A DNA stretch of 58,334 nt from IMG/VR virus record IMGVR_UViG_3300048848_000261, positions 1 through 58,334 of that record. One strand, written 5' to 3'. Under the pieces are notes generated by a model that saw only the letters and a program-made list of their open reading frames with translations, made no database searches and was not told the origin of the DNA. Shown here in pieces: positions 40,948-58,334 of the stretch (positions within the stretch are counted from its first letter, which is position 1; each line of letters starts with the position of its first letter). This stretch comes from a virus (taxonomy: Duplodnaviria; Caudoviricetes). Made by a program: the position numbers and the translations under genes.

Positions 40948-41595
40948 TCACAGCTTCTTGAGGAAAGCAAGTGGCATGCTTTCAATCTCGAACACCTGAC
41001 CATCGACGTTGATTGCAACTCTTGCCTTCGCCTGTCTGCACCATTTGATTTGAAGGATCAGGCAGGTGAAACCGGAAAAGGCACTTCCTTCGATCTCTGC
41101 TCTGTCTCCCTCGACAAAGGTCTTGTCAGTTGCGACGCGTGGCACGTCATCATCTGCAATCTTCTTGAAAAGATTGATAACTTCATCGCGGATGCAAAGC
41201 GGCGCCCCGGTGCTTCCACCCATCAGACGCACCACATTCTTCTGCCTTCTGAGGCCATCGAACGCTTCATCAGACGGAACGCATCGCACCATCAGGTAGC
41301 CTGGAAGCATCGAGATTTCCTGCAGGAACTTCTTCCCGCGACGAACAACCATCACTTTTTGGCGCGCAAGAAAGACCTCGACGCTGGCCTCAATTAAAGC
41401 CTTTTCCACAGAGAACTCATGGCGTGGTTCGACTTGAAGGCAAAACCAACGGGCTAGGTGTGGGTGATTCTCTGTCACTGTCATCGTTGCTTCCTTCAGG
41501 TTTCTAGCGGCGATCCTGCGCATTCTGTCTTCGAAGCGCTCTCTGCCCTGGTTTGCGACTGGCGATCCGATCACCGTTCTATGCTGCATCATCAT
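40948..41595 (-). CDS. NusG-paralog transcription antiterminator
   Basis: NGN domain (WFCL.V.P..E, LPGYL.V) and KOW domain (F..GD...I..SAFSGF). Confidence 0.85.
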   Translation of the reverse strand: MMMQHRTVIGSPVANQGRERFEDRMRRIAARNLKEATMTVTENHPHLARWFCLQVEPRHEFSVEKALIEASVEVFLARQKVMVVRRGKKFLQEISMLPGYLMVRCVPSDEAFDGLRRQKNVVRLMGGSTGAPLCIRDEVINLFKKIADDDVPRVATDKTFVEGDRAEIEGSAFSGFTCLILQIKWCRQAKARVAINVDGQVFEIESMPLAFLKKL

Positions 41596-49594: not shown

Positions 49595-50023
49595 ATGTTC
49601 TCAGCACTGAAAGCCAAACTGTCTGGCGGAGTGAACAAGTACTCGGGCCGTAACGACTTCCTCGAAGCAGTTTGCGCTGCTTCCGCGCTGGTGGCCGCTG
49701 CAGATGGCGACGTGTCGGATGCCGAGGTGGATCAGACCATCAAAGCCATCACGTCCAACGCCAATCTTTCGGCGAACTTTCGCACGCAGGAAATTGAGCG
49801 AACCGCAGATGCCATGCTCAAGCGCGCCCAGGGCGGCCGCGTCGGTCGGTCAGGCCTTTTCAAAGAGATCGAGGACGTTGCAGCCGACCACGATATGGCG
49901 GAGACGGTCCTGCTTTCCGCCCTCGACGTCGCAGACCACGGCGGCATCGACGAGAAGGAAAAGGCCGTGCTTGCCAGCATCGCGCAGCGTCTCGGTCTGA
50001 ACATCACAAACTACGATGTCTAG
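49595..50023 (+). CDS. TerB-family protein
   Basis: DFLEAVCAA.ALVAAADG.V...E; VAD.GGID..EK.VL..IA..LGL. Confidence 0.85.
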   Translation: MFSALKAKLSGGVNKYSGRNDFLEAVCAASALVAAADGDVSDAEVDQTIKAITSNANLSANFRTQEIERTADAMLKRAQGGRVGRSGLFKEIEDVAADHDMAETVLLSALDVADHGGIDEKEKAVLASIAQRLGLNITNYDV

Positions 50024-50493: not shown

Positions 50494-50814
50494 ATGGGAC
50501 AGCCAATCGACTTCGAAGGTAGCAACCTCGTAATGCGAGCACCTGAAGGCGCAGAGAGCGTCCAGGACATGCACGTATACCGCACGCGGCATTCTTGCGT
50601 CTCATGCTGGACTGTGACGGCGGAGGAGCTTGCTGAGATTGCGACGACCGGCCGCATCTTCCTCTCAGTGCTCGCAGGAGGCCAGCAGCCGCCAGTGTAT
50701 GTCGGTTCTGAGAGCACTTGCCGCGAGGTCATGCTTGACTTCGGACCCGTCTGGCCAATGGTACCGCGGACCCCAGCACCCCAGCCGCATTTGGGTGGTG
50801 GATCGGATGCGTAA
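50494..50814 (+). CDS. Hypothetical phage protein
   Basis: GGAGG RBS; SCW....EEL.EI..TGR.FL.V....QPP. Confidence 0.75.
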   Translation: MGQPIDFEGSNLVMRAPEGAESVQDMHVYRTRHSCVSCWTVTAEELAEIATTGRIFLSVLAGGQQPPVYVGSESTCREVMLDFGPVWPMVPRTPAPQPHLGGGSDA

Positions 50815-51013
50815 GAAACTATGCGCCGAAGATCCTTTGCAAGCTGAATACTCGCTCTGTGGTGACGCCTTCGACGCCCCTGACGATCCGATGTGCGAGA
50901 CGGAACCGTTTGAATTCGCAAGACCCGGACAGACTGTCAACTGTGCTGAATGCCTGCGAGCGATAGGCGAAATCAAGCTCCGGTACTCACCGAAGGGGAG
51001 ATATTACAAATGA
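50807..51013 (+). CDS. Small Cys-rich protein
   Basis: LCGDAFD...VNC.EC; overlap-coupled. Confidence 0.65.
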   Translation: MRKKLCAEDPLQAEYSLCGDAFDAPDDPMCETEPFEFARPGQTVNCAECLRAIGEIKLRYSPKGRYYK

Positions 51014-51612
51014 CCAACGAGAACACACCACCCCAGACGAAAGAGCGGCCGATCGAAGATGGTCGTTTTGATACTTGGTCGCTAGAAGATTTCGCCGGAC
51101 AGTGCCGCATGCAGGCGCGCGACAATCTGGACCCGGAATATTCCGCGTTTATGACCGCCTTAGGCGAACGCCTGCGTGATATGGCAAACACGCCATCACC
51201 CCAAACGAATACGATGGGTGACCTTGAGCGCTGCGCCCGGATCGCCCATGCCGTTTACGAGGACGAGATCGGTAGGCGAGACGCTTGCCTCTCGGAAGGC
51301 CCGCCGAACTGTGAAGGAGCACTGACGCGCGCGCGACAGGCTCAGACCGCACAAGAGATTGAGACGCAGATCCGCGCGTTGATGACCCAACCTCCGTCGG
51401 GCGTTTACGGGCTGATTAAAGAAGCCGCAAACCTGATCCAGAAAGAACGGGACAATCTCTTTTCATCGTTCCAGGTAGACGGACGCCTTGTCGTCGAAGA
51501 CGAGATCGACGCCCGAGCGGTGACGGTTATCGGCGAGATGGATGGTTGGTTGCTACGCGCGAAAGCGGCTCTTTACGGACAGTCCGCCACCCCGGAGGGC
51601 TTGGCAGAATGA
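51010..51612 (+). CDS. Modular hypothetical early protein
   Basis: Contains junction motifs at 51025 and 51193. Confidence 0.75.
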   Translation: MTNENTPPQTKERPIEDGRFDTWSLEDFAGQCRMQARDNLDPEYSAFMTALGERLRDMANTPSPQTNTMGDLERCARIAHAVYEDEIGRRDACLSEGPPNCEGALTRARQAQTAQEIETQIRALMTQPPSGVYGLIKEAANLIQKERDNLFSSFQVDGRLVVEDEIDARAVTVIGEMDGWLLRAKAALYGQSATPEGLAE

Positions 51613-52034
51613 GCAGCCAGGTCAATCGATACCTCAAAGACAAGGCCATGGATCATATCGACCACGCCCTTGGCAGGCCGGTCGATCCGATGGTCGAGAG
51701 CTATCGCAACTACTTTGCGACGGCTACCGACAGCAAGGAAGCGAAGGAATTCGCAGCCTCTCCATATTGGGACACCCACGGCAGAACCGCGCCCAGCCGC
51801 ATGGCATATTTCTTCGTCACCGAGGCCGGCCGTAAGGCGCTCAAGCAGCACCTGAAGGAAATCGGCGATAAGCACCGGCTCTATGCCGTGACATACGAAG
51901 GCCAGACATCGACCATTGTCGCCGTGTCCGCCGCGAAAGCGAAGTACAGCCTTTGGCTCAGTATTTCGGACTGCTTCTGTGACCTGACGTTTGGAAAATT
52001 CACCCGAGGCGCAACCGTGAGGAAGGCAGCATGA
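51609..52034 (+). CDS. Hypothetical phage protein
   Basis: HALG...SYRNYF...F.VTEAG..AL. Confidence 0.75.
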   Translation: MSSQVNRYLKDKAMDHIDHALGRPVDPMVESYRNYFATATDSKEAKEFAASPYWDTHGRTAPSRMAYFFVTEAGRKALKQHLKEIGDKHRLYAVTYEGQTSTIVAVSAAKAKYSLWLSISDCFCDLTFGKFTRGATVRKAA

Positions 52035-52597
52035 CCGAAGATCGCAAAACCTACACCTTCATCGGTAACGACTGCCCGCCTAATTACCGCCGTGTCGGAA
52101 CCATCGATGTTGCCGACCCTGCGGACGTGCGACGTGCGGAAGATCAAGGCTATTGCATCGGTTCGATTTACGACGGGCGCAGCTACTCTGTCGCCGAACC
52201 TTGCGCGGCAGACATCTACGAGGAACTGGACGAAGACCTCGAAAGGGAAAAGGCTGTTACTGCCCAAGCTATTGCGATCATCTGCCGCGAGGCCGCAGAG
52301 ATGGGCTTCACGGAAGATACGATAAGCGAGTTTAGGGCCGGTCGATTCGATGGCGATGACCTCTTGACGCTCCAGGCTGTCGAGCGGGCTCTCACGCCAC
52401 CACCCGAAACGAATTTGTGGGTGACTGATGAGATGGTGGAAAAAGCAGCTGCGGCCTATTGGCTTGAGGTTTACGGCCGCCATCGAAAAAGCCAGCAGTG
52501 GCCTGAGGACGTTCACGGTGGTTCGCAGCAACTTTTCCATGACGGGTGCCGAGCCGCCCTGAATGCCGCTCTTTTCGCCATGGAGGAACAATCATGA
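52031..52597 (+). CDS. Modular hypothetical early protein
   Basis: After the motif at 52397, the C-terminal VTDEMVEKAA module is identical to ORF 54499. Confidence 0.75.
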   Translation: MTEDRKTYTFIGNDCPPNYRRVGTIDVADPADVRRAEDQGYCIGSIYDGRSYSVAEPCAADIYEELDEDLEREKAVTAQAIAIICREAAEMGFTEDTISEFRAGRFDGDDLLTLQAVERALTPPPETNLWVTDEMVEKAAAAYWLEVYGRHRKSQQWPEDVHGGSQQLFHDGCRAALNAALFAMEEQS

Positions 52598-52989
52598 CTG
52601 AGGCGTTCTCTGTGGTGAAAGACGCAGCCTGCATAATGCGTGGGAATAGCAAGACCTTTAGTGTCCGCGAGGGCATGATAGGTGAGGTAAGCGGCGAACT
52701 TTACGCCGACGTTGGGTCTCTACTCTTAAAGCTCGTCCTTAAGGCAGACGGTTCTTACGAGGATCATCAAGGACGGATTTGGGATATAAACGGTATCGAT
52801 CGCTGCCCAATTTGCGCCGAGCCGTTTAAGTCGGATGACGTATGCGCCACCGATATCGAACTTTTGACCGTGCACGCCGAGTGTTTGGAAGGATGCGAAA
52901 TCGTTGATCTTGAGACGGAAGAGCCAACAGACAAGCCGCTAGGCACATTCCCATATAGCGATCTCGCTTCCCCATCACCCCAACCGAAT
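52401..52989 (+). repeat. 589-bp direct repeat, copy 1
   Basis: Appears identical by eye to 54521-55109 (offset 2120). Confidence 0.95.
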
Positions 52990-53622
52990 TTGGTGGCCGC
53001 CGAACTCGTAGACGCACCAAAAGTCAACGAGAACGCGCAAGGATCAAACGGAGAAACCTCGGCAACATGTTGCCGAAATGACCCTAATAGTGACCCTAAA
53101 AACGAGAACATCCACCCGCCCCAGAACCATTTGGAAGGTGACAACCAGCCGCGCTACACTACGAAGCGCATGCATGATGAGATAGCCAAGGCTAAAGCGC
53201 TCGCGCGCATGGAAGTGCTAGATCAACTCCATTCCAAAGCGCTTGGTCAGGTCGATTATTTTGATCGGAAGCAGCGAGAGTTCACCTGCCTCGACGACTG
53301 CCTGGATGAGGAAGGCGAACTCCACCTGCCGGACGATATCGGGCCGCTCCTCCGGCACGACCATGCAAACGGTCGAATGAGTGAGGCCGCTTGGTGGCGC
53401 GATACACTTCAAGGTCTCAAAGAAGAGACCGGGACCCGACCGCCGCAGACCAACGTGATTCCGCCGCACGTCCGTGACTTCATCGGCAAGGTGCAGGGTG
53501 TCTGCATGGGTGTGGCCATGTCGGGCGACGATCATCCGAACCCTGATGGCGCTCTAATGGAACTTGTCGAAGAGGCGCAGGAACTGCTGTTCCCAACCGC
53601 TACCACGGAGGGCCAGCCATGA
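52594..53622 (+). CDS. Four-module chimeric early protein
   Basis: Modules separated by motifs at 52972, 53113 and 53437; includes a CPIC...C...H..C Zn-finger-like module. Confidence 0.75.
   Translation: MTEAFSVVKDAACIMRGNSKTFSVREGMIGEVSGELYADVGSLLLKLVLKADGSYEDHQGRIWDINGIDRCPICAEPFKSDDVCATDIELLTVHAECLEGCEIVDLETEEPTDKPLGTFPYSDLASPSPQPNLVAAELVDAPKVNENAQGSNGETSATCCRNDPNSDPKNENIHPPQNHLEGDNQPRYTTKRMHDEIAKAKALARMEVLDQLHSKALGQVDYFDRKQREFTCLDDCLDEEGELHLPDDIGPLLRHDHANGRMSEAAWWRDTLQGLKEETGTRPPQTNVIPPHVRDFIGKVQGVCMGVAMSGDDHPNPDGALMELVEEAQELLFPTATTEGQP
52972..53130 (+). repeat. 159-bp diverged repeat, copy 1
   Basis: Homologous to 56873-57031 (offset 3901). Confidence 0.9.
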
Positions 53623-54512
53623 GCGAGCCCCGCAGGCTTCTGATCAGCTTTTCTGGCGGAGAAACATCCGGCCGAATGACGAAGCTCATCCACGAGCGTC
53701 GTGCCGGCGAGTACGACGAGATTATCACCGTATTCGCCAACACCAGTCAGGAAAACGAGCAGACGCTTGAGTTCGTCCGTCGATGCGATGAGGCATGGAG
53801 CTGGAATGTCGTGTGGGTGGAAGCCGTAACTGATCCGCAGCATGGTAAGGGCGTCTCCGCTCGCGTCGTCGACTTCAATACGGCTTGCCGTGATGGATCG
53901 GTCTTTGAGGCGATGATTGCGAAGCTCGGTATTCCTGGTCCCGGCTTTATCCATTGCACACGCGAGCTTAAGGAACGAGCGATCACAGCCTATTGTCGTT
54001 CAATTGGTTGGAAGGCGGGGACATACGACACTGCCATCGGCATCCGCATCGACGAGATCGATCGCATCAATCCAAACGCAGCGTCTGCTCGGCTGGTCTA
54101 TCCTCTCATTAAGCGGTTTCCGCACACCAAGGATGACGTCAACGCTTTCTGGAGCCGACAATCCTTCCGGCTCGAACTGAAGGGATATCAGGGCAACTGC
54201 AAATGGTGCTGGAAGAAGTCGCTGCGCAAGCACCTGACGATCATGTCCGAGACGCCAGAAGCATTCGACTTTCCAGAGCGAATGGAAAGGCTCTACCCGA
54301 TGTCTGGAGCCAACCCACGCAATGAGGAAAAGCGGTTCTTCCGCAACCGCCTCAAGGTCGAGGACATCCGACGCCTTGCAGCGGAGGGGAACTTCGCACC
54401 GGCAGAAGACGACGCGCAAATCAATCAGATGGACTTCTTTCGTGGCCTCGACCTCGATGTAGGCGGCGGCTGCGAGGAAAGCTGTGAGGTGACTTTCGAT
54501 GACGCAGCATAA
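53619..54512 (+). CDS. PAPS-reductase-family (PP-loop, Fe-S) phage protein
   Basis: ISFSGGETS, FANT..E, CTRELK, IGIR.DE, YPL, GNCKWCWKK. Confidence 0.85.
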   Translation: MSEPRRLLISFSGGETSGRMTKLIHERRAGEYDEIITVFANTSQENEQTLEFVRRCDEAWSWNVVWVEAVTDPQHGKGVSARVVDFNTACRDGSVFEAMIAKLGIPGPGFIHCTRELKERAITAYCRSIGWKAGTYDTAIGIRIDEIDRINPNAASARLVYPLIKRFPHTKDDVNAFWSRQSFRLELKGYQGNCKWCWKKSLRKHLTIMSETPEAFDFPERMERLYPMSGANPRNEEKRFFRNRLKVEDIRRLAAEGNFAPAEDDAQINQMDFFRGLDLDVGGGCEESCEVTFDDAA

Positions 54513-54717
54513 AAACCCATCACCCGAAACGAATTTGTGGGTGACTGATGAGATGGTGGAAAAAGCAGCTGCGGCCTATTGGCTTGAGGTTTACGGCCGC
54601 CATCGAAAAAGCCAGCAGTGGCCTGAGGACGTTCACGGTGGTTCGCAGCAACTTTTCCATGACGGGTGCCGAGCCGCCCTGAATGCCGCTCTTTTCGCCA
54701 TGGAGGAACAATCATGA
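54499..54717 (+). CDS. Single-module protein (VTDEMVEKAA module)
   Basis: Six-codon leader, then the motif, then the duplicated module; GAGGT RBS. Confidence 0.65.
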   Translation: MTQHKNPSPETNLWVTDEMVEKAAAAYWLEVYGRHRKSQQWPEDVHGGSQQLFHDGCRAALNAALFAMEEQS

Positions 54718-55109
54718 CTGAGGCGTTCTCTGTGGTGAAAGACGCAGCCTGCATAATGCGTGGGAATAGCAAGACCTTTAGTGTCCGCGAGGGCATGATA
54801 GGTGAGGTAAGCGGCGAACTTTACGCCGACGTTGGGTCTCTACTCTTAAAGCTCGTCCTTAAGGCAGACGGTTCTTACGAGGATCATCAAGGACGGATTT
54901 GGGATATAAACGGTATCGATCGCTGCCCAATTTGCGCCGAGCCGTTTAAGTCGGATGACGTATGCGCCACCGATATCGAACTTTTGACCGTGCACGCCGA
55001 GTGTTTGGAAGGATGCGAAATCGTTGATCTTGAGACGGAAGAGCCAACAGACAAGCCGCTAGGCACATTCCCATATAGCGATCTCGCTTCCCCATCACCC
55101 CAACCGAAT
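54521..55109 (+). repeat. 589-bp direct repeat, copy 2
   Basis: See copy 1. Confidence 0.95.
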
Positions 55110-55583
55110 GTGCTGGCCTTGGAAGCACCATGGCAGTGGTGGGCTGGTAGCACCGAAGAATGGTGCACGGTCGGCCCAGAAGACACCCGCGAGGCGATCA
55201 TCCAGGCCGCGACCAACGATAGTCTGGGCGAGTTTCAGCACGAGGAAGGCGGATGGAACCTTGGCTTCCATATCGTCGAAGCCCGGTCAGATCCGCTACG
55301 CCTAGCCGACTGGATAGAAAGAGACCGGCTTCTTGAACGAGCCGAAGACAGCATGGCCGACAGCGATCGCACGTCGAGCGAATATGACGATGGCCCGTGG
55401 TTCGATTGCACACCTGAGCAGGAAAAGGATCTTGAGGCGCGCGTTAAGCGAGCGTGTGACGAATGGCAGGCCGCACACGGCCTCACCTTCGCCTGCGCGA
55501 CGTTCAGCCATACCCGCAACAACGAGCATGTCGTTGTTGAGCTCCCTGACAATCGCACCACCACGGAGGGCTCGGCAGAATGA
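54714..55583 (+). CDS. Chimeric early protein: same N-terminus as 52594, different C-terminus
   Basis: Diverges immediately after the motif at 55092-55109. Confidence 0.75.
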   Translation: MTEAFSVVKDAACIMRGNSKTFSVREGMIGEVSGELYADVGSLLLKLVLKADGSYEDHQGRIWDINGIDRCPICAEPFKSDDVCATDIELLTVHAECLEGCEIVDLETEEPTDKPLGTFPYSDLASPSPQPNVLALEAPWQWWAGSTEEWCTVGPEDTREAIIQAATNDSLGEFQHEEGGWNLGFHIVEARSDPLRLADWIERDRLLERAEDSMADSDRTSSEYDDGPWFDCTPEQEKDLEARVKRACDEWQAAHGLTFACATFSHTRNNEHVVVELPDNRTTTEGSAE

Positions 55584-55930
55584 GCGACATGGAGGAATTC
55601 AGCAAGGCACTTCGCCGGCTTCCCGTCCCTGTCTCCTGCTTCTCCAATGGCGCCTGCTGCCCTTGGTGTGGCGGGTTGAACAAGACTGTAACCTTCGGGA
55701 TGAACAACTGTATCGAATGCGGCAAGGCATATGCTTTTGGATATCCCGATTGGCACGGGGAGAAAGACCCCGTCAGTTGGGTGCCGTTCCCTTTCATGGA
55801 ATTCGAAGCTCTCGGTGGTCGCGCGGATCTTATCCCCGAATTCAAGCCGAATGATCGTCTGAAGGAAATCTATTTCCAGAAAACCGAAGAGCATATCGGC
55901 CGACACGCCGACATGACGAAGCCGAATTGA
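55580..55930 (+). CDS. Zn-ribbon protein
   Basis: CPWC...CIEC; ATGA overlap. Confidence 0.7.
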   Translation: MSDMEEFSKALRRLPVPVSCFSNGACCPWCGGLNKTVTFGMNNCIECGKAYAFGYPDWHGEKDPVSWVPFPFMEFEALGGRADLIPEFKPNDRLKEIYFQKTEEHIGRHADMTKPN

Positions 55931-55940
55931 GGATCATCTC

Positions 55941-56516
55941 ATGACTGAAGCGATATTCAGAGAGCGCCTGCAGGCAATCATCGACTGGGCTGACCTAGCA
56001 ATGAAGAACCGCGCCGTATTCGACAGCCACGGCGTCCGCAACCTCGACGGCCCTGTCTTCGATGCGGCGCGGGAAGCTCTCGCCAGCACCTCGCCACCCA
56101 AAACGAATCCAATCGGCTACATTTCTAGGGATACGTTCGCGGAACTGCTCCACGATAACAGCGGAGAGTACAAGATCGTCACGCCTGAAGACCTGATCAT
56201 GGTTGAAGGATCAATTGCGGACTACGTCCCGATCTTCTCGCTACCAGGAGCGCACCCCTCAGACCCACCGCCGCAGGATCATGTGGCGGGTGTGCCGGAA
56301 GATCTTTTGAAGCTGACGTTTGCCATTCAGCACAACCCGAATTGCCCATCGCAATGGCTGGTTCGCCTTCCCGGCAAATCCGGCTCCATCGACATGAAAC
56401 CCTATCGGGATCTGATAGGCATCGTCCCGCATCAGACCGGCGACATTCTCGGTTTCGGGAAAACACTCGACGAGGCGGCGCGGGCAGCACTCGCAGCTTC
56501 GGAGGTTAAACCATGA
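55941..56516 (+). CDS. Three-module chimeric early protein
   Basis: Motifs at 56091 and 56265; GAGGA RBS. Confidence 0.75.
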   Translation: MTEAIFRERLQAIIDWADLAMKNRAVFDSHGVRNLDGPVFDAAREALASTSPPKTNPIGYISRDTFAELLHDNSGEYKIVTPEDLIMVEGSIADYVPIFSLPGAHPSDPPPQDHVAGVPEDLLKLTFAIQHNPNCPSQWLVRLPGKSGSIDMKPYRDLIGIVPHQTGDILGFGKTLDEAARAALAASEVKP

Positions 56517-57049
56517 CCAGCAACACAAATCTTGCCGAGATCGTTGATCGGCTGCGCGTCAGAACTCGGCCATCGTATGGGTATCAGCCGCTTATGGACG
56601 AAGCCGCAGAAGCGATCGAGCACCTCCAGGGTGAGCGCGACCACTTCTATAAGCAGTGGAGCTCTTGCTGGGCTCCGCTCACCCCCAGAAGCGAAAACGA
56701 GAAGCGCGGGCTTGACCGTGTTCTCGCAATCCTCAAGTCCAAGCTCAGCGACGGCGGGGGTATTGTCGGCGCGTCAGACGTCCAGCGAACTCACAACGAC
56801 TACTATCGCGGCCGGCGCGTGGCCTTCGAGGAATGCGCTGAAATGCTGCGCCTCGCCTTGGAAGCAGAGAGCCCATCACCCGGAACGAATTTGGTATCAG
56901 CCGAACTCGCGGATGCGTCGAAAGTCAACGAGAACGCGTGTGGATCAAAAGAAGAAAGCTCGGCAACATGTTGCCCAGATGACCCTAATAGTGACCCTAA
57001 AAACGAGAACATCTGCTCGCCCCAGAACGATGCGGATGGCAAGCCATGA
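56513..57049 (+). CDS. Chimeric early protein
   Basis: IVDRLR...LMDEAAEAIE.L N-terminus; ends in the 159-bp repeat module. Confidence 0.75.
   Translation: MTSNTNLAEIVDRLRVRTRPSYGYQPLMDEAAEAIEHLQGERDHFYKQWSSCWAPLTPRSENEKRGLDRVLAILKSKLSDGGGIVGASDVQRTHNDYYRGRRVAFEECAEMLRLALEAESPSPGTNLVSAELADASKVNENACGSKEESSATCCPDDPNSDPKNENICSPQNDADGKP
56873..57031 (+). repeat. 159-bp diverged repeat, copy 2
   Basis: See copy 1. Confidence 0.9.
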
Positions 57050-57213
57050 CAGCTCGAGCGATCATCACCGAGATTGAGCTGCGCAGGATGGCGAAGGTAG
57101 CCAAGAGGGATGGTGTTCGCGTCGAAGTGGAGATTGGCGGCAGGCTTTTTCGTGTCGCGCCAGACAACGCGAAGCCAGCTGCTGTTGACGAACACGAGGA
57201 GATCAGGCTTTGA
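57046..57213 (+). CDS. Putative excisionase (55 aa, not in the ORF track)
   Basis: MTARAIITEIELRRMAKVAKRDGVRVEVEI...; immediately upstream of the integrase. Confidence 0.6.
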   Translation: MTARAIITEIELRRMAKVAKRDGVRVEVEIGGRLFRVAPDNAKPAAVDEHEEIRL

Positions 57214-58334
57214 ATGACTTCATGCCGCGAAAACTCCCGCTCTATGTCTGTAAGCAAAAGGACCGAAACGGTTCTTGGGTATACTATTTCCGCATCGGGA
57301 AGGGTACGCGCACCCGCCTTCCCGACCCCAACGATAGCAGATTTCGCGCGGCCTATCAGGCCGCTCTTGCGGGTACTGAAGTCGAGATAAAGGATCGCGA
57401 CACCCCGAACACGATCGCATGGCTTATTGCTCGCTACATGGAGAGCGCAGACTGGGCAGGCCTCCAGCCGGCGACCAGGAAGCAGCGCAGCAACATATTT
57501 TTCCATGTCAAAGAAAAGTCAGACGGTCGCGGCGGCAAGATCGGGATGAAGCCTTACTCCCTGATCACGGACAAAGCCGTGCGTGCAGGCATGGAAGATC
57601 GTGCCAAGACGCCGGCAGCCGCAAACAACTATCTGAAATCGATGTCTGCTCTATGCCGGTGGGCCGTCAAGAACGGCCACATGAAGGTCAACCCTACAGA
57701 AGGAGCGGAGCGCTTCAAGCTCAAGGGTGACGGCTTCCCGGCGTGGGAGATCGAGGACGTTCGGGCATTCTGCATCAAATGGCCGATAGGCACAAAACAG
57801 CGGCTGGCGATGGAGCTCGCCATGCATACTGGGCTGAGGCGGTCGGACCTGGTCCGGATCGGACGTCAGCACCTGCGCGGCAATACCCTCTCAATCACCA
57901 CTACGAAGACATCAGCGCGAATCACTGTCGAGCTTCCGCAGCGCGTGATCGACATCATCGCGGCAACGCAGACCGGCGATCTCCATTTTTTGGTGACTGA
58001 TTATGGGAAGCCATTTTCGGTCCCAGGGTTCGGAAACTGGTTCGGGGACGCATCAAGGAAAGCGAATCTCGAAAAAAATACCCACGGCTTGCGGAAGCTG
58101 GCAGCGACGATGGCCGCAAATGGCGGCGCAACAGCGCATGAATTGATGAGCCAGTTCGGCTGGTCGAACTCCAAACAGGCTGAAGTTTACACAAAAAAAG
58201 CGGACAGAGCCCGCCTTGGAGTAAAGTCTTCGCGCATCGTCAGCGAACAGCTCGGGAACGAGCTTGCCCCTCACAGCAATTCTTGTGAGGGAAATATTCC
58301 AGATAGTGAAGCGATATCAATAACTAAGAATTGA
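57210..58334 (+). CDS. int: Prophage integrase (tyrosine recombinase)
   Basis: Arm-binding N-terminus (DRNG...YYFR); TGLRRSD, K, HGLRK, FGW, Y. The start is probably ATG 57222. Confidence 0.95.
   Translation: MNDFMPRKLPLYVCKQKDRNGSWVYYFRIGKGTRTRLPDPNDSRFRAAYQAALAGTEVEIKDRDTPNTIAWLIARYMESADWAGLQPATRKQRSNIFFHVKEKSDGRGGKIGMKPYSLITDKAVRAGMEDRAKTPAAANNYLKSMSALCRWAVKNGHMKVNPTEGAERFKLKGDGFPAWEIEDVRAFCIKWPIGTKQRLAMELAMHTGLRRSDLVRIGRQHLRGNTLSITTTKTSARITVELPQRVIDIIAATQTGDLHFLVTDYGKPFSVPGFGNWFGDASRKANLEKNTHGLRKLAATMAANGGATAHELMSQFGWSNSKQAEVYTKKADRARLGVKSSRIVSEQLGNELAPHSNSCEGNIPDSEAISITKN

Follow-up and report, generated by a model that had tools for sequence, protein, structure and literature searches.

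A DNA-conserved, in-frame boundary sequence recurs at module breakpoints in the accessory early operon of a provirus

Introduction

The origin of phage mosaics is an old question, in which recombination at short linkers is set against random illegitimate joining followed by selection. We address it at a single locus, in a provirus (Duplodnaviria; Caudoviricetes) recorded in IMG/VR as IMGVR_UViG_3300048848_000261, where a short DNA word recurs in frame along an operon of accessory early genes. The window, meaning the whole stretch of DNA that was analysed, is this record of 58,334 bases, whose completeness is rated at 71%. Between 50494 and 57213 on its + strand the open reading frame (ORF) list gives 13 small, tightly packed accessory early genes, here called g1 to g13, that make up one operon; an excisionase-like gene forms its 3' end and a tyrosine integrase follows. 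A first-pass annotation, made from the sequence alone, had reported 13 in-frame copies of an 18-base motif in this operon and had read them as frame-preserving recombination joints between swappable protein modules, on the analogy of an integron or shufflon. What the repeated word is, and what it does, is the question followed here. The copies are real and conserved at the DNA level, and both recent and older homology breakpoints fall on them. The reading that we prefer, with a probability of about 0.6, is that the word is a nucleotide-conserved boundary sequence at which general recombination, or recombination by a phage annealase, would reassort modules in frame.

Results

Seven near-identical copies of the word lie in one operon

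Seven near-identical DNA copies of the word (CCAYCACCCNNAMCGAAT) are spread over 5.7 kilobases (kb), all on the + strand and all in frame. Six of these seven strong copies are recovered at three or fewer mismatches, against 0.06 expected, and none of 100 shuffles reaches six. A matrix built from the seven gives the strong copies 24-30 bits and every other window position at most 16. The strong copies are not independent of each other because one duplication has the pairs 52397/54517 and 52972/55092 at its two ends, and the number of independent strong copies is about four or five. In its wider form the joint covers 21-25 bases, about CCA YCA CCC NAA MCG MAT KTG followed by a G-rich run, with the 18-base word as its core, and it translates as proline-rich P-x-P-Q/E-T/P-N/H-L/V.

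For all 13 positions in the first-pass annotation the quoted letters, the + strand and the ORF frame were verified. The count of 13 motif copies stands only in part, however, with seven sites being real DNA copies, two being weak and four sharing a peptide pattern alone. Specifically, the copies at 50773 and 51025 score no better than unrelated matches at 3331, 41267 and 42912, while those at 53113, 53437, 56265 and 57014 score -3.6 to 0.9 bits and have only the peptide pattern P-P-Q-x-N/H-L/V in common. What had been quoted as a variant of the DNA motif is thus a peptide pattern. Along the operon the sites are:

50773-50790, + strand: weak copy P-A-P-Q-P-H in the tail of g1, 17 nucleotides (nt) upstream of the g2 start codon; 13.5 bits
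51025-51042, + strand: weak copy T-P-P-Q-T-K, codons 6-11 of g3; 15.6 bits
51193-51210, + strand: strong copy P-S-P-Q-T-N in g3; 0 mismatches, 29.8 bits
52397-52414, + strand: strong copy P-P-P-E-T-N in g5; left end of copy 1 of duplication D1
52972-52989, + strand: strong copy P-S-P-Q-P-N in g6; right end of D1 copy 1 and left end of copy 1 of duplication D2
53113-53130, + strand: peptide-level copy H-P-P-Q-N-H in g6; -2.8 bits; right end of D2 copy 1
53437-53454, + strand: peptide-level copy R-P-P-Q-T-N in g6; 0.9 bits
54517-54534, + strand: strong copy P-S-P-E-T-N, codons 7-12 of g8; left end of D1 copy 2
55092-55109, + strand: strong copy P-S-P-Q-P-N in g9; right end of D1 copy 2
56091-56108, + strand: strong copy S-P-P-K-T-N in g11, separating modules E and F; 24.0 bits
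56265-56282, + strand: peptide-level copy P-P-P-Q-D-H in g11, ahead of module G
56873-56890, + strand: strong copy P-S-P-G-T-N in g12; left end of D2 copy 2
57014-57031, + strand: degenerate copy C-S-P-Q-N-D in the tail of g12; -3.6 bits; right end of D2 copy 2

The idea that proline-rich linkers of separate origins have clustered by chance would sit well with the 4 of 13 copies that lack DNA similarity and with the two that score like random window matches. For the seven strong copies it is refuted, since the excess over expectation and over the shuffles is joined by minor codons held in common, by an exact 21-mer shared with another phage type and by breakpoints that coincide with copies (all below), and we give it next to no probability.

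Duplications within the operon end on copies

Two duplications in the operon, D1 and D2, have all four of their ends on copies, in agreement with the first-pass annotation. D1 is a run of 589 identical bases, or of 593 with one mismatch. The features concerned are:

52401-52989, + strand: duplication D1, copy 1, 589 identical bases
54521-55109, + strand: duplication D1, copy 2, 589 bases identical to 52401-52989
51587-51614, + strand: second conserved joint at gene boundaries, 93% identical to 55558-55585

At the left joint of D1, copy 2 differs from copy 1 at motif base 4 only; it looks like a hybrid of two motif variants, such as a crossover inside the motif would leave. Among the contigs of one public run, X1, which is possibly the source run of the window and serves only to confirm the duplication, the 589-base unit forms a contig of its own, with a depth of 82.5 versus 42-53 for its neighbours. 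D2 is a module that ends at the copies at 52972/56873 and 53113/57014; its two copies are 84% identical, and the similarity fades within the 53113 copy.

The sequence between motifs had been described as unrelated apart from the duplications. This holds, with the exception of the second conserved joint at gene boundaries (51587-51614, 53596-53625 and 55558-55585), where T-T-E-G codons encode a ribosome-binding site that is followed by an overlapping stop and start. Contigs of another run, X3, align just with the boundary pieces of this joint at 53603-53622 and 55558-55587. The second joint opens with CCACCAC, as the motif does, and many homologues end in ...T-E-G-x-x-x.

The D2 module itself (52990-53112 and 56891-57013) is of low complexity (N-E-N...C-C...D-P-N-S-D-P-K-N-E-N) and contains a near-palindrome of 19 bases (53058-53076 and 56960-56978). 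A 77% identical D2 copy lies in a frameshifted, unannotated gap of a prophage on S. meliloti pSymB; it was set aside as evidence on the joint, the stretch being frameshifted, partly unannotated and without a clear motif.

Breakpoints in near-identical contigs fall on copies

Contigs of four public runs (X1-X4) were aligned to window positions 51000-57100, and neither the uncovered stretches of X2-X4 nor the small shares of X3-X5 were taken to bear on absence or habitat. Among the pieces listed (at least 75 nt), 9 of about 14 true ends lie no more than 5 nt from a copy, and such zones make up about 6% of the stretch. When only the listed pieces of 98-99% identity are considered, all six ends lie within 5 nt of copies, these ends being at 55108, 56282, 54532 (in two separate contigs), 56281 and 56890.

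Individual contigs show what lies on the far side of these breakpoints. For example, an X2 contig of 2,999 bases matches 55108-56282 with 21 differences (98.2% identity), and both ends of the match lie inside copies. Ahead of the match, this contig has an unrelated module and a further motif variant (A-P-E-T-H-V, read by hand), and downstream it carries an extra 581-base piece that is flanked by two words of the 56265 type. An X4 contig, which differs from the window at 4 of 442 bases (99% identity), matches as far as 56890, where a strong copy ends, and continues into a different module that resembles the middle of g11. A further X4 contig of 259 bases fuses 54532 directly to 56281, which places a strong-type motif ahead of module G. 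This is a natural motif-to-motif joint, with just 20 letters on one of its sides, and such joints can stem from other organisms. We take the contigs to have been built from 31-letter words, in which case a word of 18-21 bases alone makes no false join. In X3 contigs one match stops at 54532 and another begins at 53455, and in X2 contigs matches begin at 52419 (in a 33-kb contig) and at 57033. The X2 relative of one module has no full motif ahead of 52419.

Breakpoints among homologous proteins

The operon's polypeptides are multi-module, with Lar-like (PF14354) or MazZ-like (PF04447) domains found in relatives only, PF04447 being carried by relatives P0093 and P0096. All 15 non-self matches of g6 span just 8-41% of the protein. 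In the case of g11 there are more than 120 relatives, which align either to the first 50 residues or to the last 75; the alignments end at residues 47-62 and start at residues 104-126, and the two copies occupy residues 51-56 and 109-114. Among 119 relatives of one gene, the local alignments break off at its two copies. Alignment ends of g3 homologues are likewise concentrated at residues 55-64, by the 51193 copy, and those of g6 homologues lie at residues 285-289, by the 53437 copy. Overall, 109 of 153 ends that are internal to both partners are no more than 6 residues from a copy, versus 29.6 expected, although the ends are not independent because many relatives have a module in common. Thus, the proposal that breakpoints of relatives concentrate on the motif is borne out both among these homologues and among the listed contig pieces of 98-99% identity.

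Modules are also found with different partners, joined at one and the same point, as the N-terminal module of g6 and g9 precedes three different modules, one in the window, one in P0003 and one in P0011. At the DNA level, the homology of a Mu-like provirus (L138) to the g11 region stops at 56090, the base before the 56091 copy. Of 146 homologues, 27 contain a broad form of the peptide pattern, with 29 occurrences in all, versus 0.8 in shuffles and 0 in reversed sequences. In an AlphaFold model of g11 (mean predicted local distance difference test score 77), both copies fall in predicted stretches of coil that separate folded segments. Module M3 has distant relatives in metagenomes (7 loci, 36-48% identical), none of which carries the motif, and the motif is therefore not part of the M3 domain. 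More distant relatives of module J lack the peptide pattern as well.

The word is conserved beyond the needs of the peptide

We compared 37 copies from 8 loci with 1000 synonymous redraws that used the codon usage of the window. Third positions 6, 9, 18, 21 and 24 carry excess information (p ≤ 0.001 each, values that overstate independence, as the copies are related by descent). Specifically, 33 of 37 copies use CCC for the second Pro, a codon with a window usage of 0.18, and 28 of 37 have T as the last base of the Asn/His codon. Directly after the motif, Leu is written TTG in 10 of 11 cases and Val is written GTG in 15 of 15 (usages 0.10 and 0.24). Conservation of third-codon positions beyond the protein's need, on which the first-pass reading depended, is therefore observed.

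These results bear on the alternative that the word is selected as a peptide, that is, as a linker recognised by a host partner or by a protease in polyprotein processing, with the DNA likeness a matter of recent common descent. Several observations agree with this. The pattern is written with other codons at 53437, 56265, L054 8266 and L054 8458, its frequency among homologues far exceeds the 0.8 of the shuffles, a related prophage (L128) repeats its own variant, x-P-K-N/D-N-L/M/V, four times, and polyvalent phage proteins have been proposed to release domains by autoproteolysis (PMC5512222). However, synonymous positions are conserved beyond the requirement of the peptide, and the motif is also found at extreme N-termini and in C-terminal tails, where a linker or cleavage site is without obvious use. 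Furthermore, a close module relative has no full motif (the X2 contig before 52419), the more distant relatives of M3 and J lack it wholly, and the S24 repressor is the only protease among the early genes tested. We therefore consider a functional peptide to be a rather improbable explanation.

Joint context within and between genes

The joint is found in three settings, namely between domains within genes, just past start codons, and in gene tails ahead of the next ribosome-binding site. Among the 37 copies, 23 are internal with no stop nearby, 9 lie no more than 12 codons before a stop and 5 lie no more than 12 codons after an ATG. A G-rich run (e.g. GGGTGA) follows the NTG codon in about 16 of 37 copies by hand count, in two reading frames. 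This arrangement suggests that the joint derives from, or may still act as, an intercistronic element.

Taken further, the word could be an RNA or translation element, in which a C/A-rich stretch, a potential start (TTG, GTG, ATG) and a Shine-Dalgarno (SD)-like run would form an intercistronic or initiation signal. Modules would then be made both fused and alone, or in a coupled manner, and the breakpoints would be secondary, marking old gene boundaries. The presence of NTG after the motif in 25 of 26 Leu/Val cases is in keeping with such an element, as are the G-rich run in two frames, the 9 of 37 copies in gene tails ahead of the next ribosome-binding site and start, and the 5 of 37 soon after an ATG; at L054 7314 the G-rich run even doubles as the ribosome-binding site of the next gene. 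UCACCC can also pair with GGGUGA, with a predicted stem in about 10 of 20 copies. This hairpin was rejected as a candidate, since fold z-scores of the 20 copies run from -2.7 to +1.3, are mostly insignificant and give it no backing. It also speaks against a translation element that no SD sequence is located 5' of the NTG, that internal copies have no consistent start codon past the G-rich run, that the 23 internal copies have no stop close by, and that Rfam gives no match. A search for promoter-like or terminator-like sites found none at any copy. On balance, we regard an RNA or translation element as unlikely, though not far-fetched.

A 44-codon ORF in an alternative frame (52428-52562 and 54548-54682) has its ATG three bases past the GGGTGA that follows the motif at 52397/54517. 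It is probably spurious, though placed where the SD-like run would serve it.

A related idea is that the joint is an active, selected signal and not a passive scar. It might be a cassette adaptor, in which NTG and the SD-like G-run let a module be translated alone or fused, or its CACCC...GGGTG core might be read by a phage or host factor that promotes exchange. We hold this to be speculative and decidedly doubtful. If true, new early proteins would be built with a standard in-frame connector that is maintained across the temperate phages of one gene pool.

Distribution in relatives and host genomes

When relatives of the integrase (17 loci) and other prophages are inspected, similar copies are seen upstream of integration modules. 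L054 has 6-7 copies and L129 has four, while L049, L050 and L053 have one each, that of L053 being in a gene tail; the variant of L128 was noted above. In L053 the module that is homologous to the one at 51025 is a separate gene behind the motif-bearing tail, and L054 carries H-S-P-Q-T-H-L-E-G, homologous to the 53113 stretch. The joint is common to lambda-like and Mu-like prophages, as L138, a Mu-like provirus that is rated 100% complete and has MuB-like, DUF3164 and GemA genes, contains six copies. One of these (L138 8451) is an exact 21-mer equal to the window's 52972 copy and its next codon, and this 21-mer sits between unrelated flanks.

The word is rare in host genomes, so that a background frequency matching that of the operon, which the first-pass annotation had named as counting against its reading, is not what is found. 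In five host genomes with related integrases (5.4-7.5 megabases), the 14-base core occurs 1-7 times per genome, and in one of them (G002) three of its seven matches fall in the related prophage. A sample of 401 Rhizobiaceae genomes contains 32 instances of a 17-base version, spread over 27 genomes, and none of the 401 has an array of it. Most of the 32 matches are unrelated; the only clear in-frame joints are at L108 (the same site as L049) and L117. In 28 control loci the six-residue pattern has a background of 4.07 matches per 100,000 six-frame residues, versus 7 in about 2,200 operon codons. An exact-pattern scan of IMG/VR gave 48 single matches, about chance level by a rough estimate and mostly out of frame or in an unrelated context.

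Longer relatives of the region itself are scarce. When the region was compared with phage and plasmid records by BLAST, the pieces returned were gene-sized or smaller and nothing was longer. In IMG/VR g6 has no relative, and a DNA search of 401 Rhizobiaceae genomes matched 13 of the 400 that were scored, covering the whole of g4, g7 or g10.

Nine of the 32 matches to the 17-base version are one recurrent 21-mer that is motif-like at its end and lies inside a 24-codon open frame (loci L103, L110, L112, L116, L119, L123, L125 and L127; genomes G061, three times, G345, G034, G044, G141, G029 and G152). This 21-mer is nearly unchanged from one genome to the next and appears to be an unrelated element, either a small repeat or an RNA gene. 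In L128, position 2549-3799 of the joint-bearing accessory region encodes a C-5 cytosine DNA methyltransferase (Pfam), and its neighbour at 1281-2063 resembles a second methyltransferase by eye only.

Tyrosine recombinases and the joint

The two tyrosine recombinases named in the first-pass annotation were confirmed as PF00589 proteins:

57210-58334, + strand: tyrosine integrase, PF00589; frame open to the window end; 91% identical relative in L049
9106-10011, + strand: rec2, a second, small tyrosine recombinase, PF00589; given as context

A dedicated site-specific system, in which rec2 or the integrase would act on the motif and handle protein modules in the manner of an integron or shufflon, was considered with these genes in mind. 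The rec2 family is small (about 290-300 residues) and adjoins the integration end of these prophages. Homologues that are 59-65% identical lie just 3' of the joint arrays in L054 (8946-9809; 6-7 copies), L129 (11754-12617; four copies) and L128 (4810-5799; four copies), directly ahead of a second, larger integrase in L054 and L128 and apparently as the sole one in L129. The motif is moreover asymmetric, as sfx sites are (PMC11852207). However, the Mu-like L138 has six copies and no PF00589 gene although it is rated complete, and rec2 occupies the usual place of the integration module, so that gene order alone explains the link. Since L138 carries the joint without such an enzyme, we set aside the association between rec2 and the arrays as a matter of gene order. 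In addition, rec2 scores 21.5 bits versus a cut-off of 265 for the integron integrase family TIGR02249 and far under the Xer cut-offs, which makes it a generic tyrosine recombinase, and the integrase at 57210-58334 has no TIGR02249 match. All seven strong copies are direct repeats, between which intramolecular events would only delete, and no attC-like hairpin is found. A dedicated site-specific system is thus very improbable, and the claim of an integron-like or shufflon-like device is not supported.

Discussion

Proposed exchange of modules at a boundary sequence

In the model that we favour, temperate phages of the Rhizobiaceae would carry, in their accessory early operons, exchangeable coding modules flanked by the joint. 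Because every copy has the same phase, a crossover that joins two of them, whether they belong to one genome or to two co-resident phages, would replace a module and leave the frame intact. The exchanges could be the work of general homologous recombination, or of single-strand annealing proteins that are encoded by phages of the same gene pool, and each exchange would pass the joint on, which may keep it uniform. General recombination over the common 18-25 bases is the simplest mechanism. Proteins of the annealing type do occur in related prophages, with a Rad52-type protein in L050 and RecT in L053, and Rad52-type and RecT-like proteins recombine short, diverged homologies (PMC3945230). The core of the first-pass proposal, a frame-preserving junction with module exchange, is consistent with the duplication ends, the alignment ends of homologues, the contig breakpoints, the third-codon positions and the rarity of the word.

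Several points weigh against this model. Minimal efficient pairing has been put at 31-34 base pairs for RecA and 23-27 for Red-beta, so the common identity of 18-25 bases is under the RecA minimum and at the low edge for Red-beta (PMC3945230); each event must be rare because the joint is below these minima. No RecT, ERF or Rad52 family member was found in this provirus, which is rated 71% complete, and here the statement that it has no recognisable Red/Erf/Sak-type gene is upheld. Selection for intact domains alone would put surviving breakpoints in linkers, and the crossovers are read from sequence comparison, none having been seen directly. Some breakpoints lie elsewhere: g6 alignments also end at residues of about 68-71, 152-160, 202-212 and 254-258, and among the contig ends listed 52950, 51633 and 51823 are off copies, as is an internal replacement in g4. 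A model of pure recombination has no need of the strict NTG codon or of the G-rich run. Finally, both the DNA and the peptide are constrained, the latter because DNA similarity is absent from four of the 13 listed copies and the 53437 copy encodes the consensus peptide core through different synonymous codons, as several L054 copies do.

Relation to known systems

The closest counterpart is published. Short conserved boundary sequences have been described as foci of homologous recombination in phage mosaicism, and this linker model is usually set aside, such sequences being rarely found at boundaries (PMC3029335). The first-pass statement that no joint of this kind had been described was thus too strong. 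The likeness is a short sequence common to the junctions of unrelated neighbours, with exchange by general recombination; both features that identify such a sequence are present here, as the seven near-identical copies and the L138 21-mer have unrelated flanks and homology breakpoints of related phages coincide with copies. The difference is that the word lies mostly inside genes in a fixed translated phase, joins domains as well as genes, and occurs 7-13 times per operon. An open-access literature search found no paper on this word or on a repeated in-frame joint in rhizobial phages, which leaves absence unproven, and a survey of protein-domain mosaicism in phages has neither "linker" nor "breakpoint" in its main text (PMC10684548).

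Mosaic early genes of the ea22 type are known from lambda and Stx phages (PMC10834534). Like the genes studied here they are non-essential, lie between the integration module and early functions, and consist of blocks in varied combinations that include a MazZ-like pyrophosphohydrolase block (PMC10834534). In contrast, Ead_Ea22 or any other Pfam family is absent from the 10 of 10 operon genes tested, and the available portion of that paper describes no repeated junction word.

The shufflon, with its Rci recombinase and sfx sites in pilV, resembles the present case in having short asymmetric intragenic sites and in-frame joining, the shufflon swapping C-terminal segments (PMC11852207, PMC5430464). 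It differs in that it inverts DNA by a dedicated recombinase within one clone, whereas here the sites are direct repeats, no dedicated enzyme is indicated and L138 is free of tyrosine recombinases. Inverted sites are lacking (7 of 7 strong copies are on the + strand), and no dedicated Rci-type recombinase accompanies the six L138 copies.

The resemblance to integrons consists of arrays of exchangeable units bounded by a recurrent site near a tyrosine recombinase. Integron attC sites are long imperfect palindromes outside coding sequence, and the cassettes are whole genes. The joint, in contrast, is an 18-21 base word inside coding sequence without a significant hairpin, and rec2 is no integron integrase. 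Polymorphic toxins have pre-toxin boundary motifs, e.g. VENN in CdiA or the end of the Rhs core. These share with the joint a short in-frame motif between a constant part and swappable modules, which gives homology for cassette replacement, but those systems involve secreted proteins and toxin-immunity pairs, with one boundary per gene, unlike the many boundaries per operon and the small cytoplasmic phage proteins seen here. Cassette recombination of such toxins is mentioned in PMC5512222. Polyvalent proteins combine two to fifteen conflict-related domains per phage or plasmid polypeptide (Iyer et al. 2017).

The locus is thus a very clean case of a suspected and rarely seen route to phage mosaicism, and not a new integron-like machine. 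The linker is explicit here, as it is repeated many times in one operon, conserved at the DNA level, common to lambda-like and Mu-like prophages and located on breakpoints of relatives that are 98-99% identical, and the exchange would extend beyond whole genes to protein domains. The linker model thereby becomes directly testable, and in a soil bacterium that is harmless.

Genes of the operon and its surroundings

The genes of the operon, taken from the ORF list and all on the + strand, are:

50494-50814, + strand: g1
50807-51013, + strand: g2
51010-51612, + strand: g3
51609-52034, + strand: g4
52031-52597, + strand: g5
52594-53622, + strand: g6
53619-54512, + strand: g7
54499-54717, + strand: g8
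54714-55583, + strand: g9
55580-55930, + strand: g10
55941-56516, + strand: g11
56513-57049, + strand: g12
57046-57213, + strand: g13

None of the ten operon genes tested has a Pfam family at E ≤ 0.01, and g12 and g13 are likewise without one. PHROG matches are confined to g7 (PAPS-reductase family), the C-terminus of g9 (phrog_1672), g1 and g4, with g7 the only operon gene to which PHROGs give a name. The position of the operon corresponds to the non-essential early-left region of lambda, and 5' of it lie an S24-type repressor, a TerB-domain protein and further early genes.

The g7 product (53619-54512) aligns to phrog_424 positions 160-417 of 460 only, and so is without the family's N-terminal part. 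The gene is bracketed by both copies of the 589-base duplication, and a relative in G202 with 74% DNA identity spans exactly g7. The TerB-domain protein (49607-50023) stands at the head of the accessory operon, and a NusG-domain protein is encoded at 40948-41595 (- strand) among late or replication genes.

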